This document shows positions 38,225 to 63,552 of a DNA stretch of 64,000 nt, piece by piece; position 1 is the stretch's first letter; every line of letters starts with the position of its first letter. A program made the translations under genes and the position numbers. This DNA is from a virus (Duplodnaviria > Caudoviricetes): the IMG/VR virus record IMGVR_UViG_3300025018_000091. One strand, given 5' to 3'. The notes beneath the pieces were generated by a model. It was not told where the DNA came from, searched no databases, and saw nothing but the letters and a program-made list of their open reading frames with translations.

Positions 38225-39100
38225 TTACTCCTCTATTGAAATTACATCATCTTTATCATCATTAGGTTGATCATCTGATATTATTTTTTGATCAGTAGCA
38301 GTTTCTTCTGAGCTAGATTTACTAATGGGTTTTTCATTAACAATCTTATCTTTAATGGTAATCATTACAGATCTTTCTACTTCTGGATTATCTTTTGTTG
38401 CTTTAACATCAAATAACTTATTAGTTAAATTATCATCTGGAGCGGCTTGTTTCTGATTTGCCATAACAGTAGCTAATGTAGTTAACATCTTATCTACTAA
38501 AGTATCATAACTAAATTTAGAAACGTCCATAGGAGTTATTTGCTCATAATTTTTATCGCCATGAACTAATAGTTCATCCTTTTGTAAAATAGCTTCTTTT
38601 AATGTTTCCGGTGACATAGCTAATAAATTATCTGGTGTTAATCTGTAACGTACATACATTAACTCTTCTAAATAATCTAAACTTCCAACTGATGGTTGGG
38701 TATCACTATAATCGCCATCTTTAATATTAGTGCGTATACCTTTATCAACAGATGATAACAATACTCTTGTATAACTATCTTGCCAAGCTGGTTGTTTTCC
38801 AAATTCTCGTTTTAATTGTGTCAAAACATCAGCTAATTTTGTGAATGCTTCTAATTTATGAGACATAGATTCTGATAGAAACGCCTCACTTCTATGATAA
38901 TTTTGCAATCCTCGTCTTGGAATATAATCAGTTTCTTGATTAATTCTTCTTGTATCAAAAGCATTCTTAGTAAAACCAAAACTGTTTGATAAAGAATTTT
39001 TACGAATAGAAAACGAACGTCTTCTTTGTGCAATATCATCGGCACTTTTTATAATGACACAGTATATGTCTAATACATCTAACAATTCCATTTTTACCAT
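38225..39100 (-). CDS. Hypothetical protein (possible internal head protein)
   Basis: 291 aa with KSA, KNA and KLA motifs and an acidic C-terminal tail. Confidence 0.6.
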   Translation of the reverse strand: MVKMELLDVLDIYCVIIKSADDIAQRRRSFSIRKNSLSNSFGFTKNAFDTRRINQETDYIPRRGLQNYHRSEAFLSESMSHKLEAFTKLADVLTQLKREFGKQPAWQDSYTRVLLSSVDKGIRTNIKDGDYSDTQPSVGSLDYLEELMYVRYRLTPDNLLAMSPETLKEAILQKDELLVHGDKNYEQITPMDVSKFSYDTLVDKMLTTLATVMANQKQAAPDDNLTNKLFDVKATKDNPEVERSVMITIKDKIVNEKPISKSSSEETATDQKIISDDQPNDDKDDVISIEE

Positions 39101-39185
39101 ATATTAAGGTTGCAAGTGACATTACAGGCTATTATGATACAGAAATATTACCCAAAGAAATATAATGTAACAAATATTAACGGGC

Positions 39186-39214
39186 TTGACAGGATTTTTT
39201 TTTGATATTACATT
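39186..39214 (+). promoter_or_regulatory. Sigma70-type promoter, probably giving a leaderless mRNA
   Basis: TTGACA (39186-39191), 17-nt spacer, TACATT (39209-39214). The ATG is at 39221, with no SD sequence. Confidence 0.6.
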
Positions 39215-39220
39215 TTTACC

Positions 39221-40465
39221 ATGACATATTCACAAATTTCAAAAAAAGCTATTCATCCTAAATCTATCAACTTATGTAGCATACTAAAAAATGCAGGATA
39301 CCAAGCATATCTTGTTGGTGGTTGTGTAAGAGATTTATTTTTAGGAGTTACACCTAAAGATTGGGACATTACTACCGATGCCTTACCACAACAGGTTATT
39401 GCGTTATTTCCTAAAACATATCCAACTGGCATTCAACATGGTACTATAACTGTCGCCTTGGAAGATGAATACTTTGAAGTAACAACATTTAGAACAGAGG
39501 GCAAATATACGGATAACAGAAGACCAGATGAGGTAAAATTTGTGTCTTCAGTAGAGGAAGACCTATCTAGAAGAGATTTAACAATTAATTCTATGGCTTA
39601 TGATCCAATTACAGATACAATTATTGATCCATTTAATGGTTTACAAGATTTACAAAACGGAATAATAAAAGCCGTTGGAAACGCAGATGATAGATTTCAA
39701 GAAGATGGTCTAAGGATTTTACGAACAATTCGTTTTGCCTGTAGATTCAACTACGAAATTGAAGAAAAAACAAGACTATCAATGCAAAATAATAGGAGTA
39801 TATTAAACAATATCTCAAAAGAAAGAATAAAGGATGAATTTTGTAAGATAATGTCATATGACAATAGTTTTTATGGATTAAGATTATTATTAATGAATAC
39901 ATTATTACCATTAGTTTCACCTCTACATGAAAACTATGTATCTTATACACAATTTCATCAATTGGATGCGGATTTAGAAACTAAAATTGCAGATTTCTAC
40001 TATGAATATAATCCAATAGATGTTGAAAAGGAGTTAAGATGGCTTAAATTTTCCAATGATGAAATAAAAAGAATAATCTTTTTTCTAAAGCTAATACCAA
40101 TGTATAGGATGCTTTTAAAAATTAGTAACACACAAACCTATATTAGATTCATTGCACACATAAAAAATAACGCACCGCAAGAATATACATATACTTTAGA
40201 ACAATTTCTTAAACTAGTCAGATCCGAAAAAAATGAAATTAGTAAATACTTATTTGAGGAATGTGCGGATGTTACTATATTGTCTAGAAAAGAAATGAAG
40301 ATAAATGGTAATGATTTAATAAATATAGGAATACCAATTGGTCCGGAAATAAAAAAAGCTCTAGATAAATGTTATCAAGAAATCCTTAATCATCCAGAAA
40401 ATAATAACAAGGATATATTATTAAAATTTGTTTTATCAGATAGATTATTGTATTTAATGTTGTAG
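39221..40465 (+). CDS. cca: CCA tRNA nucleotidyltransferase (class II, no HD domain)
   Basis: GGCVRD...KDWD (motif A), [11 protein letters not shown]...Y.D.RRP loop, [15 protein letters not shown] templating motif. Confidence 0.92.
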
Positions 40466-61526: not shown

Positions 61527-61933
61527 TATTTTTTATTTGCAAGTGATTTGAGTAATACTGCCTCGCGACTTCTTAAGAAAATATCATCCATAATACCATT
61601 ACCATCTACTTCACATAAACCTCTAACCGATCTTTCACTAATAAAAATTTGCTTTCCTAATTTACTCATATTAGTACGCCTATCAAGATAAGTACCTTCC
61701 ATCACTAAACATTCTTTATAAGCAGCAATAACTTTTCCAAAGAAAACAGTTGGGTATGGAGTTGATACTTGTTCTGTACTTACTGTCTCATATGCATCAC
61801 CAAGATACACTTCTACATACTTATCTTTAAATAACTCATACCAAAATTCTGCGATAGTTGAATGACCTTTTCTTGTTGAATTAATTTCATTCATTTTCTC
61901 TATCATAGCATCTAATTGATCTTGTGGTATCAT
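61526..61933 (-). CDS. Hypothetical protein, paralog 2 of a tandem pair
   Basis: Shares EVYLGDAYE...ST.YP.VF.GKVI..Y.ECL.MEG.Y.DR...KQIFISER with the neighbouring gene. Confidence 0.75.
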   Translation of the reverse strand: MIPQDQLDAMIEKMNEINSTRKGHSTIAEFWYELFKDKYVEVYLGDAYETVSTEQVSTPYPTVFFGKVIAAYKECLVMEGTYLDRRTNMSKLGKQIFISERSVRGLCEVDGNGIMDDIFLRSREAVLLKSLANKK

Positions 61934-62355
61934 TATTTTTCCTCTTCAAGATCTAAATTTTTAAGCTCTATTGTATCGCGACTTCTCATAAAAATATCAT
62001 CTATAATACCACGACCATCTACCTCACATAACCCTCTAATTGCTCTTTCACTAATGAAGATTTGTTTTCCAGGCTTATACGATATATTTTTCATTTCTTT
62101 GGATTGCAACATTTTTCTATCGATATAAGAACCTTCCATTATTAAACATTCTCTATATGAGCCTATAACTTTTCCAGAAAATACTGCTGGATATGTTGTT
62201 GAAATTTGATCAACACTTAATTCTTCATATGCATCACCAAGATACACTTCTATAAATTTACCTTTAAATAATTTACATAAGAATTCAGCGACAGTAGCAT
62301 CTCTATCTACATTTAATTCATCAACTAAATTTGTTAATTCTTCTCGCGGTATCAT
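61933..62355 (-). CDS. Hypothetical protein, paralog 1 of a tandem pair
   Basis: Same shared motifs; TAATG-coupled to paralog 2. Confidence 0.75.
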   Translation of the reverse strand: MIPREELTNLVDELNVDRDATVAEFLCKLFKGKFIEVYLGDAYEELSVDQISTTYPAVFSGKVIGSYRECLIMEGSYIDRKMLQSKEMKNISYKPGKQIFISERAIRGLCEVDGRGIIDDIFMRSRDTIELKNLDLEEEK

Positions 62356-62367
62356 CGATAATCCTTA

Positions 62368-63552
62368 TCAGGCAAACTTAAGAAGAAATTTCCTATAGTT
62401 TATTAAAACTGCAGAACTGGTTATTACTGAATAAGATGACTCTTTATTAATAACTACATTGGCATTGATATTAATACCTCCAACTTTTGATGTGGCTATT
62501 TTAAATACATCTGCTAAAGAAGAGGCTAATTGTTGAATAGTATTAGCGCACAAATCTTTTGGTCCCTGAATATCACATTGTACTTCTACATTTTTGTCAT
62601 CAGTATGAATATGTGCATTAGCTATTAATTCTTCTTCTAATGCCGAACACAAAATGCGCCCAAACTCTATTGCATGATTAGTTTCTTTTGCTGATATTGG
62701 AATAACAAAATGATACGTAGGTAATAAAGCCTTGTATAATTGTTTGTGATGTTTCTCTGAAACACGAACTTGTTGTAATAACTGGTCTACTAATGACGTA
62801 ACATTATCGGGAGTAGTGTTTGTATTTTGAGGATTTATATATGTACCCATTAATTGCTCCCATCTATCATCATCTGTTGTACTTGCCGGTTCTTGTACCG
62901 CCAGAGTTTGCACTGGTGTTTCTTCTGTAGATGGTGCTTTTTTAGATTTTTTTGACCACACTTTTACACCGGCTAAATAAGATTCTACTGGCGCAGTAAA
63001 ATAACGATTGTTTTTTAATTCAGTAACAAATCCAGTAATGTCACCTTCTTTAGCCTTTTCAACAGCAGAAGGAAATTTTTCTTTTAATAAACGAGCCCAA
63101 TCAGAAACCCCCTCTTCCAATGTATCATAAGCTCGAAATAAACTATTAAGATAATATTTTTGCTTTTGCTTGTCATATTCATGAGCCAATAATATAATAA
63201 CATCACCTTTCCAATATTGATTTGGAGAACCAGCTGCCATTAAATTTCCAACATTATTATTATGTAATGCTCTAAATCCTGTTTCCATTCCAAGTTGACC
63301 CATTAAAATATCAACAGTAGCATCAACATTATCTTTAACACCTAACATTTGCATAGCCGCATTTTTTACAGCAGATCGTATAGTAGAAACATTTGGAGGA
63401 TTAGTTTCTTTTTTTACAACTCTCCATCCATTTTTATTAGCACGATTTATTGCATCTTGACTGGTATTTCTAATATCTTTGTCAACAAACCCAATACTTA
63501 ACAAATTGAATTCATCTAATTTTTTATAGAACATAGAGTCTAATTTAGTCAT
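62368..63552 (-). CDS. Virion-associated lysin with a GH73 (FlgJ/glucosaminidase-like) domain
   Basis: GQLGMETG...NNVGNL...FRAYDTLEEGVSDWARLL...LKNNRYFTAP..Y matches the GH73 catalytic Glu, FRxY and YxT motifs. Confidence 0.7.
   Translation of the reverse strand: MTKLDSMFYKKLDEFNLLSIGFVDKDIRNTSQDAINRANKNGWRVVKKETNPPNVSTIRSAVKNAAMQMLGVKDNVDATVDILMGQLGMETGFRALHNNNVGNLMAAGSPNQYWKGDVIILLAHEYDKQKQKYYLNSLFRAYDTLEEGVSDWARLLKEKFPSAVEKAKEGDITGFVTELKNNRYFTAPVESYLAGVKVWSKKSKKAPSTEETPVQTLAVQEPASTTDDDRWEQLMGTYINPQNTNTTPDNVTSLVDQLLQQVRVSEKHHKQLYKALLPTYHFVIPISAKETNHAIEFGRILCSALEEELIANAHIHTDDKNVEVQCDIQGPKDLCANTIQQLASSLADVFKIATSKVGGININANVVINKESSYSVITSSAVLINYRKFLLKFA

Follow-up and report, generated by a model that had tools for sequence, protein, structure and literature searches.

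The window analysed here is a stretch of 64,000 nucleotides from a tailed-phage genome (Duplodnaviria; Caudoviricetes; IMG/VR record IMGVR_UViG_3300025018_000091), whose 38-64 kb part represents the head-assembly module of a phage-G-like giant phage with low GC content (~33-37%). This module encodes the major capsid protein (MCP), a polyprotein in which a protease is fused to a scaffold, and a series of further open reading frames (ORFs). For most of these putative cargo ORFs neither Pfam nor PHROGs provides a family; ORF 60029 is a PTP/DSP-type phosphatase, whose Pfam match begins at residue 4, and ORF 62368 shows a weak match to GH73 glucosaminidases. The subject of this report is the tripeptide K-x-A, which an initial annotation of the sequence had listed near the N-terminus of the MCP and many of its neighbours, and every listed tripeptide is indeed present. 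Based on orthologues, the starts of the protease-scaffold, ORF 44727 and ORF 59389 (N-terminus MIKRA) were corrected to ATG 59103, ATG 46004 and ATG 60036, respectively, a correction that shifts the residue numbering; the mechanical ORF starts lie too far upstream. With ATG 60036 as start of ORF 59389, an apparent 77-nt overlap with ORF 60029 disappears. The coordinates of the genes and sites are collected in Table 1.

Table 1. Head-module genes, putative motif sites and candidate catalytic residues in the window
Feature	Position	Strand	Homology or conservation
Major capsid protein, HK97 fold	41495..42508	-	phrog_2522
Protease-scaffold polyprotein, 1189 aa from ATG 59103	55534..59103	-	phrog_18299 and phage G gp19 homologue
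KDA, MCP N-terminal extension	42455..42463	-	common to PaBG (KEA), Rctr197k (KDA) and L120 (RDA)
KYA (L-V-K-Y-A), MCP N-terminal extension	42431..42439	-	invariant in clade
KNA (F-T-K-N-A), residues 45-47 of ORF 38225	38960..38968	-	K and A 100%, 40 orthologues
KIA (F-A-K-I-A), N-terminus of ORF 44727-46004	45963..45971	-	K and A invariant, 40 orthologues, 43% mean identity
KEA (I-I-K-E-A), N-terminus of ORF 46057	47065..47073	-	K 100%, A 95%, 40 orthologues, 40% mean identity
KFA, ORF 47164	48706..48714	-	K-x-[AG] within 4 residues in 26/29 orthologues, 28% mean identity
KTA (I-Q-K-T-A), ORF 48792	50121..50129	-	K-x-[AG] in 39/40 orthologues, 27% mean identity
KLA (residue 19) and KIA (residue 34), ORF 50180	51338..51391	-	both conserved, ~30 orthologues
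KLA, ORF 54266, ambiguous	54698..54706	-	conserved in close orthologues
KFA, ORF 54825	55407..55415	-	K and A 95%, 19 orthologues
KRA, residues 3-5 of ORF 59389, ambiguous	60022..60030	-	MIK[KR][AGS] in all orthologues
KIA (L-M-K-I-A), ORF 60780, immediately before conserved core	61452..61460	-	K-x-[AG] in 12/15 orthologues
KLA, second, weaker site, ORF 60780	61497-61505	-	
KFA (F-x-K-x-A), protease-scaffold residue 34, N-terminal	58996..59004	-	84% of 119 homologues
KQG then YFQG, residue 407, start of first internal repeat	57877..57885	-	73%
KEA then YFQ, residue 493, start of second internal repeat	57619..57627	-	69%
KGA (L/Y-K-x-A-Q), residue 646, then hypervariable Pro/Ala linker, domain border	57160..57168	-	86%
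KRA, residue 821, internal scaffold	56635..56643	-	77%
KLA, residue 963, internal scaffold	56209..56217	-	83%
KEA then GH..P-Q-V-G, residue 1147, ~40 residues from C-terminus	55657..55665	-	87%
Candidate catalytic His132 (CIDHK), codon	58708-58710	-	invariant in 49 diverse homologues
Candidate catalytic Ser183 (VSMG), codon	58555-58557	-	invariant in 49 diverse homologues

For the enrichment analysis the head module was defined as 20 minus-strand ORFs, i.e. the 17 ORFs from 43854 to 63552 (with a GIY-YIG gene excluded), the MCP, ORF 38225 and one end-truncated ORF, which was retained as a conservative negative. K-x-A occurs within the first 35 residues of 13 of these 20 ORFs, compared to 3.7 ± 1.6 expected when each N-terminus is shuffled and 4.2 expected from random internal windows of the same proteins. 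Among all 400 a-x-b patterns K-x-A ranks first, with the runner-up found in 7 ORFs, and none of the patterns attained 13 in 5000 shuffles (family-wise p<0.0002). As this test covers all 400 patterns, it accounts for the post-hoc choice of the motif in the initial annotation. Only five of the remaining 38 window ORFs (tail, fibres, sugar enzymes) carry K-x-A in the first 35 residues, and the strict form [LFIMV]-x-K-x-[AG] is found within 50 residues in 11/20 head versus 5/38 other ORFs (Fisher p=0.0015). The comparison with the other ORFs of the window, suggested as a check by the initial annotation, thus reveals a clear excess, and the Lys/Ala-rich background that it had named as a refuting outcome is unlikely to explain it, with Lys and Ala being no more frequent in the head-module N-termini than in the remainder of the proteins. 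No K-x-A motif is found in the decoration-like proteins 43854 and 52349, which fits with proteins that would join the capsid after maturation.

The excess could in principle be a by-product without any reader, if K-x-A were merely frequent in the Lys/Ala-rich helices of head proteins. The head proteins are helical and moderately rich in both residues, the strict motif is about twice as dense in their interior as in that of other proteins, and the corresponding test in phage G, given below, is not significant. Shuffles that preserve the N-terminal composition nevertheless fall far short of the observed count, and the excess is restricted to a single spacing: in conserved alignment columns, Lys and Ala are found two residues apart 20 times versus 7.8 expected, while spacings of 1, 3, 4 and 5 occur at expectation. 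Moreover, the motif is retained between orthologues of 27-40% identity while its flanks vary. We hence consider a by-product very unlikely.

The conservation of the motif was evaluated in 113 related IMG/VR loci obtained from two scans, with contigs of up to 480 kb. While the MCP is 89-97% identical across these loci, the neighbouring head proteins are divergent, with median identities of 25-57%, so that the comparison has real power. Hereby, K-x-[A/G] is retained at the homologous place in ten families, namely the MCP, the protease-scaffold and ORFs 44727, 46057, 47164, 48792, 50180, 54825, 60780 and 38225. Only one pair among these families is paralogous (the N-terminal part of ORF 50180 matches the 44727 family with an hhalign probability of 94.8%), and the occurrences are therefore largely independent. 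Frequently, the motif is found at the junction of a short N-terminal helix and a hypervariable linker. In ORFs 47164, 48792 and 54825 it is the last conserved element ahead of such a linker, and conservation ends at the Ala or the next residue, as it does at the Pro/Ala-linker site of the scaffold. Here, the motif is followed mostly by Gln and by a variable Pro/Ala linker in ORF 47164, by a hypervariable Pro/Gly/Ala linker in ORF 48792, and by Ser or Gln and a hypervariable acidic, Cys-rich region in ORF 54825. In ORF 38225, the KNA separates a variable N-terminus from a core that is very conserved. A family-weighted logo gives Leu, Phe or Ile at P5 (78%), Lys at P3, mostly hydrophobic residues at P2, Ala (94%) or Gly (6%) at P1 and Gln, Ser, Lys or Ala at P1', with P8/P9 likewise hydrophobic, a periodicity typical of an amphipathic helix. 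Judged from these alignments, the motif is non-random and specific for the head module, and it persists even among very divergent orthologues.

Not all occurrences behave in this way. The KLA of ORF 54266 and the KRA of ORF 59389, both listed in the initial annotation, are present in the window but remain ambiguous: the former is part of a helical-hairpin domain that also occurs in the C-terminal half of ORF 53108, and its Lys is not kept in the paralogous family, while a cut at the latter would take off only five residues. For ORF 38225, the tripeptide originally listed, KSA at residue 18, does exist, but the conserved site is KNA 45-47. The proposal that the motif marks a packaged phosphatase and a packaged GH73 lysin is not supported. 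The KVA of phosphatase 60029 is replaced by KVT in most orthologues and belongs to the phosphatase fold, and the C-terminal KFA with which the GH73-like protein 62368 ends in the window is KFI in most orthologues; an N-terminal site is lacking in the latter protein. Further candidates were rejected as well. The C-terminal KFA of ORF 44727, although present in the window, is not conserved, and the same holds for the tRNA nucleotidyltransferase sites. We also considered and abandoned a signal-peptidase (A-x-A) reading, since these amphipathic N-termini do not possess a hydrophobic core.

The motif recurs in the protease-scaffold itself, where the initial annotation had noted more than ten copies; we count 19 K-x-A and, in total, 24 K-x-[AG] sites. 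Site conservation was measured in 119 diverse full-length homologues with a mean identity of 43% to the window protein, and only a subset of the 24 sites is retained (Table 1). The sites previously singled out as domain borders, KEA-YFQ, KGA-Q and KEA-GH, belong to this subset (69-87% conserved). The N-terminal KFA is located in a helix (residues 26-42 of the model described below) ahead of the protease core, and phage G gp19 has KTA at the same position. The KEA at residue 1147 is kept although the local column conservation is only 0.45, and is followed by a conserved P-x-V-G tail. Just past the protease core, a KIA at residue 266, which would be a candidate release site, is only 48% conserved. 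In the scaffold parts of 118 representatives K-x-A reaches 1.58 times the expectation from composition, with Tyr, Gln and Ser enriched after K-x-[AG] and Phe and Leu enriched two residues before the Lys. A KIA at residue 41 (K-K-I-A-P) was discarded as a site, as the wider family conserves the preceding Lys, Pro follows, and the tripeptide belongs to the protease core. The scaffold also contains a duplicated segment of ~85 residues (57511-57885, minus strand; Y-F-Q-G ... E-P-T-P-G-K-x-K-Y-P-x-D ... D-K-x-M), which is found family-wide and in which each copy has a K-x-[AG] ahead of it.

The protease domain spans approximately residues 44-250 of the polyprotein and the remainder constitutes the scaffold. 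No Pfam match at E<=0.01 and no PDB sequence match were obtained for the polyprotein; residues 106-216 match the PHROG head maturation protease phrog_18299 (E 4e-14) and phage G gp19. An exhaustive profile-free search with a cut-off of E<=0.001 yielded 1451 relatives, including 201 with E<1e-30. Of the best 150 representatives, 118 have lengths of 1000-1450 residues. The gene is located upstream of the MCP gene within the head module, an order also found in phage G (gp19 before gp27) and in the loci L118-L120 introduced below. We modelled residues 1-270 with AlphaFold (AF2) from 49 diverse sequences (predicted local distance difference test, pLDDT, 83.7). The best Foldseek matches of the model are T4 gp21 and herpes proteases, and VIA returned Z values of 9.9 for T4 gp21 (5jbl; 132 aligned residues, root-mean-square deviation 2.7) and 9.2-8.5 for herpes proteases (9.2 for the varicella-zoster virus protease), values which are only moderately above the background range quoted for the tool. 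With its assemblin-type beta-barrel, the model was assigned to the fold of MEROPS clan SH (S21, S77, S78, S80). According to this model, the domain has the prohead-protease/assemblin fold. A complex prediction for the protease core (44-250) and the N-terminal 45 residues of the 44727 family gave a score of 0.02, which is below the mark and, with controls not run, speaks neither for nor against binding.

Two additional features of the protease domain were observed. Directly after the VSMG serine, at residues ~193-211 (~58480-58560, minus strand), C193, C198, C209 and H211 are nearly invariant in 49 homologues. From its sequence, this cluster may represent an insertion into the protease fold that binds zinc; to our knowledge, a Cys/His cluster of that kind is not a feature of gp21 or assemblin. 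Furthermore, many protease-scaffold genes carry an insertion of ~370-380 residues right after the conserved P-Y-K-N of this domain, with proteins reaching 1500-1660 residues, among them L096:8004-12752 (plus strand) and representatives P0011, P0017, P0039, P0041, P0044, P0048 and others; matches to such genes split at query residues 104-106. As the L096 insert starts with C-F-P-P-R-T-K-I-L, which resembles an intein N-terminal splice block, the insertion looks like a recurrent intein in the prohead protease.

The MCP is 53% identical to gp27 of Bacillus phage G (PDB 6WKK), its closest cultured relative. The alignment begins at MCP residue 43 and gp27 residue 2-3, so that the window MCP possesses a 42-residue N-terminal extension absent from gp27. 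This extension contains two motif sites (Table 1). The first (N-A-x-x-x-K-[DE]-A) is common to the MCPs of PaBG (KEA 44-46 of gp80) and Rctr197k, and the stretch ahead of it varies from 0 to 130 residues across relatives (38 in PaBG, ~130 in Rctr197k). The second is KYA in L119 and RIA in L120, whereas neither PaBG nor Rctr197k has it. Maturation reportedly takes ~20% off the mass of the PaBG MCP, and processing also affects several virion proteins of PaBG (PMC7412058).

More distant polyproteins are found in the 190-240 kb jumbo phages L118-L120, in which an N-terminal K/R-x-A is found on the MCP and the protease as well as on several head genes next to them, in the forms KYA or RIA, KFA or RFA, and K-x-A followed by Gln, Ala or Pro. 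In phage G, N-terminal K-x-A is present in gp9, gp11, gp13, portal gp14, protease gp19, gp20 (KTA 10-12), gp21 (KLA 10-12) and gp22; only the MCP and the protease of this phage are detectably homologous to head proteins of the window. Among the papers searched, none was found to report the K-x-A motif, or any prohead-protease motif, for the phage-G / PaBG lineage, and the 2025 multi-omics study of phage G gives no cleavage sites (PMC12484599).

As an observation in its own right, Arg replaces Lys in L120 (242 kb; 21136-22137 and 10001-13819) at both MCP sites and at the protease N-terminus (RDA, RIA, RFA), while several neighbour proteins of L120 keep Lys. This switch may reflect a lineage-level co-variation of P3, though it is confounded by composition. 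The head module of L120 also encodes an M23 peptidase of cell-wall hydrolase type (L120:7593-8156), which starts with ...A-I-L-T-K-K-A-P and, in contrast to the window's GH73 protein, fits the motif.

Taken together, the enrichment, the conservation, the recurrence at scaffold domain borders and the protease fold make a protease/targeting code, as proposed in the initial annotation and with a specificity unlike that of the Glu-ending motifs of T4 and phiKZ, the best reading of the motif. We consider it probable that the motif is a cutting and sorting mark read by the herpesvirus-like capsid protease, with the N-terminal helix serving as a capsid-targeting propeptide. In this mechanism, a short amphipathic helix at the N-terminus, which terminates in [L/F/I]-x-K-x-A and in many cases continues with Gln, Ser, Ala or Lys and a variable linker, would bring each of at least ten otherwise unrelated head proteins into the assembling prohead. 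The end of the helix would be the recognition and cleavage site of the assemblin-fold protease, as in T4 internal proteins. The polyprotein would cut its own scaffold at the same motif, i.e. at the two repeat starts, at the Pro/Ala linker and ~40 residues before the C-terminus, which would break the scaffold up and detach it from the shell, in the manner of the R- and M-site cuts made by herpes assemblin. We infer that the protease reads the motif and that tagged proteins end up inside the capsid. A cut after the Ala is favoured by analogy with assemblin, although the conservation would be about equally compatible with a cut after the Lys. Packaging of the tagged proteins and their delivery into the host are conjectural. 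From their sequences, the MCP, the protease-scaffold and ORFs 44727, 46057, 47164, 48792, 50180, 54825, 60780 and 38225 are credible candidate substrates.

Several observations weigh against this mechanism. Cleavage at the motif, in this phage and in relatives alike, and the choice of the bond are predictions from sequence comparison. In phage G, K-x-A is found in 8/20 genes of the head module (gp7-27) versus 9/44 other genes, which is not significant (p=0.13), and the phage G MCP does not have any propeptide. Two of the substrates listed by the initial annotation fail the conservation test and two are ambiguous. In ORFs 44727 and 50180, conservation runs well beyond the motif (KIAQEKGLIS), which is hence part of a larger element. 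Moreover, the motif lies on an amphipathic helix, with P8/9, P5, P2 and P1 hydrophobic, and is found mid-helix in the protease model, so that a docking surface fits as well as a cleavage site.

These last points lead to the main rival explanation, in which the helix remains uncleaved and only docks, binding the scaffold or the inner face of the HK97-fold shell like an encapsulin cargo-loading peptide, with the internal scaffold copies acting as self-association or shell-binding sites. The hydrophobic periodicity of the logo suits a single helix face, the motif is located mid-helix in the protease model, and the conserved element exceeds the length of a protease site both in 44727/50180 and in the hairpin family of the 54266 type. 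On the other hand, the motif is placed precisely at the borders of hypervariable linkers and ~40 residues ahead of the end of the scaffold, places at which cuts are known from relatives, the MCP of a relative (PaBG) is known to be processed, and a protease fused to its scaffold requires release sites. Docking and cleavage are, moreover, not mutually exclusive, as the capsid-targeting sequence (CTS) of T4 does both. Docking without cleavage appears unlikely, yet it deserves to be kept in mind. A further alternative is that the reader is not the prohead protease but a Lys-modifying enzyme or a different, host- or phage-encoded Clp-type protease. The invariance of the Lys would agree with this, and ClpP and ClpX have been reported from virions of phage G (PMC12484599). 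However, the head module of the window does not encode such an enzyme, the motif is also present within the protease-scaffold itself, and distant relatives with a protease of this family have the motif as well, which renders another reader extremely improbable.

Compared to known maturation systems, the proposed cutting and sorting mark combines familiar elements in a different way. The motifs of T4- and phiKZ-type prohead proteases end in Glu (PMC10052503, PMC5694885). With T4, the window system shares the protease fold of gp21 and, like the CTS, a short N-terminal peptide ending in a three-residue motif on many head proteins, with the scaffold as a further, here putative, substrate; several non-homologous head proteins (ten families with one paralogous pair) share peptide and motif. 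In contrast to the L/I-x-E of T4, the window motif ends in Ala or Gly, with an invariant Lys two residues before, a hydrophobic P5 and no Glu. Lys at P3 and Ala/Gly at P1 hence imply a different specificity, outside the Glu-specific group. Furthermore, the window protease is fused to a scaffold of ~900 residues, whereas the T4 protease is a separate 23-kDa protein, and cleavage in the window system is a prediction from sequence. The jumbo-phage proteases phiKZ gp175 and SPN3US gp245 (A/S/G-x-E) likewise act on multiple head and ejection proteins with motif-defined N-terminal propeptides, and their substrates are predictable from sequence (PMC10052503, PMC5694885). They differ in the MCP/protease lineage, the window having a phage G / PaBG-type MCP, in the motif residues and in the kind of evidence, which is comparative for the window rather than from mass spectrometry.

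For HK97, the gp4 protease (S78) cuts the delta domain of gp5, finally after Lys103, and herpes assemblin cuts after Ala in V/L/I-x-A↓S. As in herpes pUL26, where assemblin is fused to the scaffold and R and M sites are present (PMC4498786), the scaffold forms one reading frame with an N-terminal protease of that fold, P1 would be Ala, P3 is specified, P1' is often Ser, Gln or Ala, and a conserved site, KEA 1147, is positioned like the M-site a few dozen residues from the C-terminus. The window differs by Lys (sometimes Arg) instead of Val/Leu at P3, by many more sites, and by a motif that also tags about nine other proteins, which is not known of herpesviruses. With regard to the His-Ser-His triad of the herpes enzymes, the alignment provides an invariant candidate His and Ser for the window protease. 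With HK97, the window would share the removal of the N-terminal part of an HK97-fold MCP by a prohead protease and a basic residue at or near the final cut; it differs in that the MCP extension comprises only ~26-42 residues, scaffolding is provided by the fused polyprotein, and the motif is common to many proteins.

Tentatively, and with rather more doubt than for the window itself, the observations can be extended to a single code [L/F/I]-x-K/R-x-A across a jumbo/megaphage clade, which would be read by a herpes-like Ala-P1 protease-scaffold, load fast-evolving cargo and dismantle the scaffold. This clade comprises >200 protein clusters at 50% identity with E<1e-30, with genomes of ~190-480 kb and phage G as a relative. 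If true, the packaged proteome of uncultured megaphages would be readable directly from sequence, and the assemblin-type x-A↓ specificity would be older than the split of the phage and herpesvirus lineages. Experimentally defined prohead-protease motifs exist for only a handful of phage groups (L/I-x-E in T4; A/S/G-x-E in phiKZ and SPN3US), and the phage-G / PaBG lineage takes in most huge phages from soil and groundwater. A sequence code would predict internal head and ejection proteins of uncultured megaphages from genomes alone, yield start-site and maturation annotations, and give a natural tag with which foreign proteins could be loaded into very large capsids. Moreover, the fused protease-scaffold, the Ala-ending motif and the near-C-terminal site bring capsid maturation in tailed phages closer to that in herpesviruses. 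Cultured relatives such as phage G and PaBG allow a direct test of the idea.

Apart from the motif, some neighbouring genes of the window deserve mention. Two homing endonuclease genes interrupt the head module, an HNH/endonuclease VII-like gene (42660-43811, plus strand) and the GIY-YIG gene (51526-52308, minus strand); the HNH gene is located directly upstream of the MCP gene on the opposite strand. At 61526-61933 and 61933-62355 (both minus strand), two tandem paralogues of 135 and 140 residues, 55% identical and with abutting start and stop codons, show neither a family match nor a K-x-A site. Finally, ORF 53108 (53108-54256, minus strand) consists of an N-terminal TPR domain (residues ~1-190) fused to a paralogue of ORF 54266 (54266-54799, minus strand). 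The part common to both comprises a helical hairpin (K-A-x-D-Y-L ... I-F-E-x-x-G-M) and DUF5661, and in relatives the 54266-type paralogue is a separate protein of 140-245 residues that starts with M-[IF]-K-K-x-x-F-E-x-E-L.

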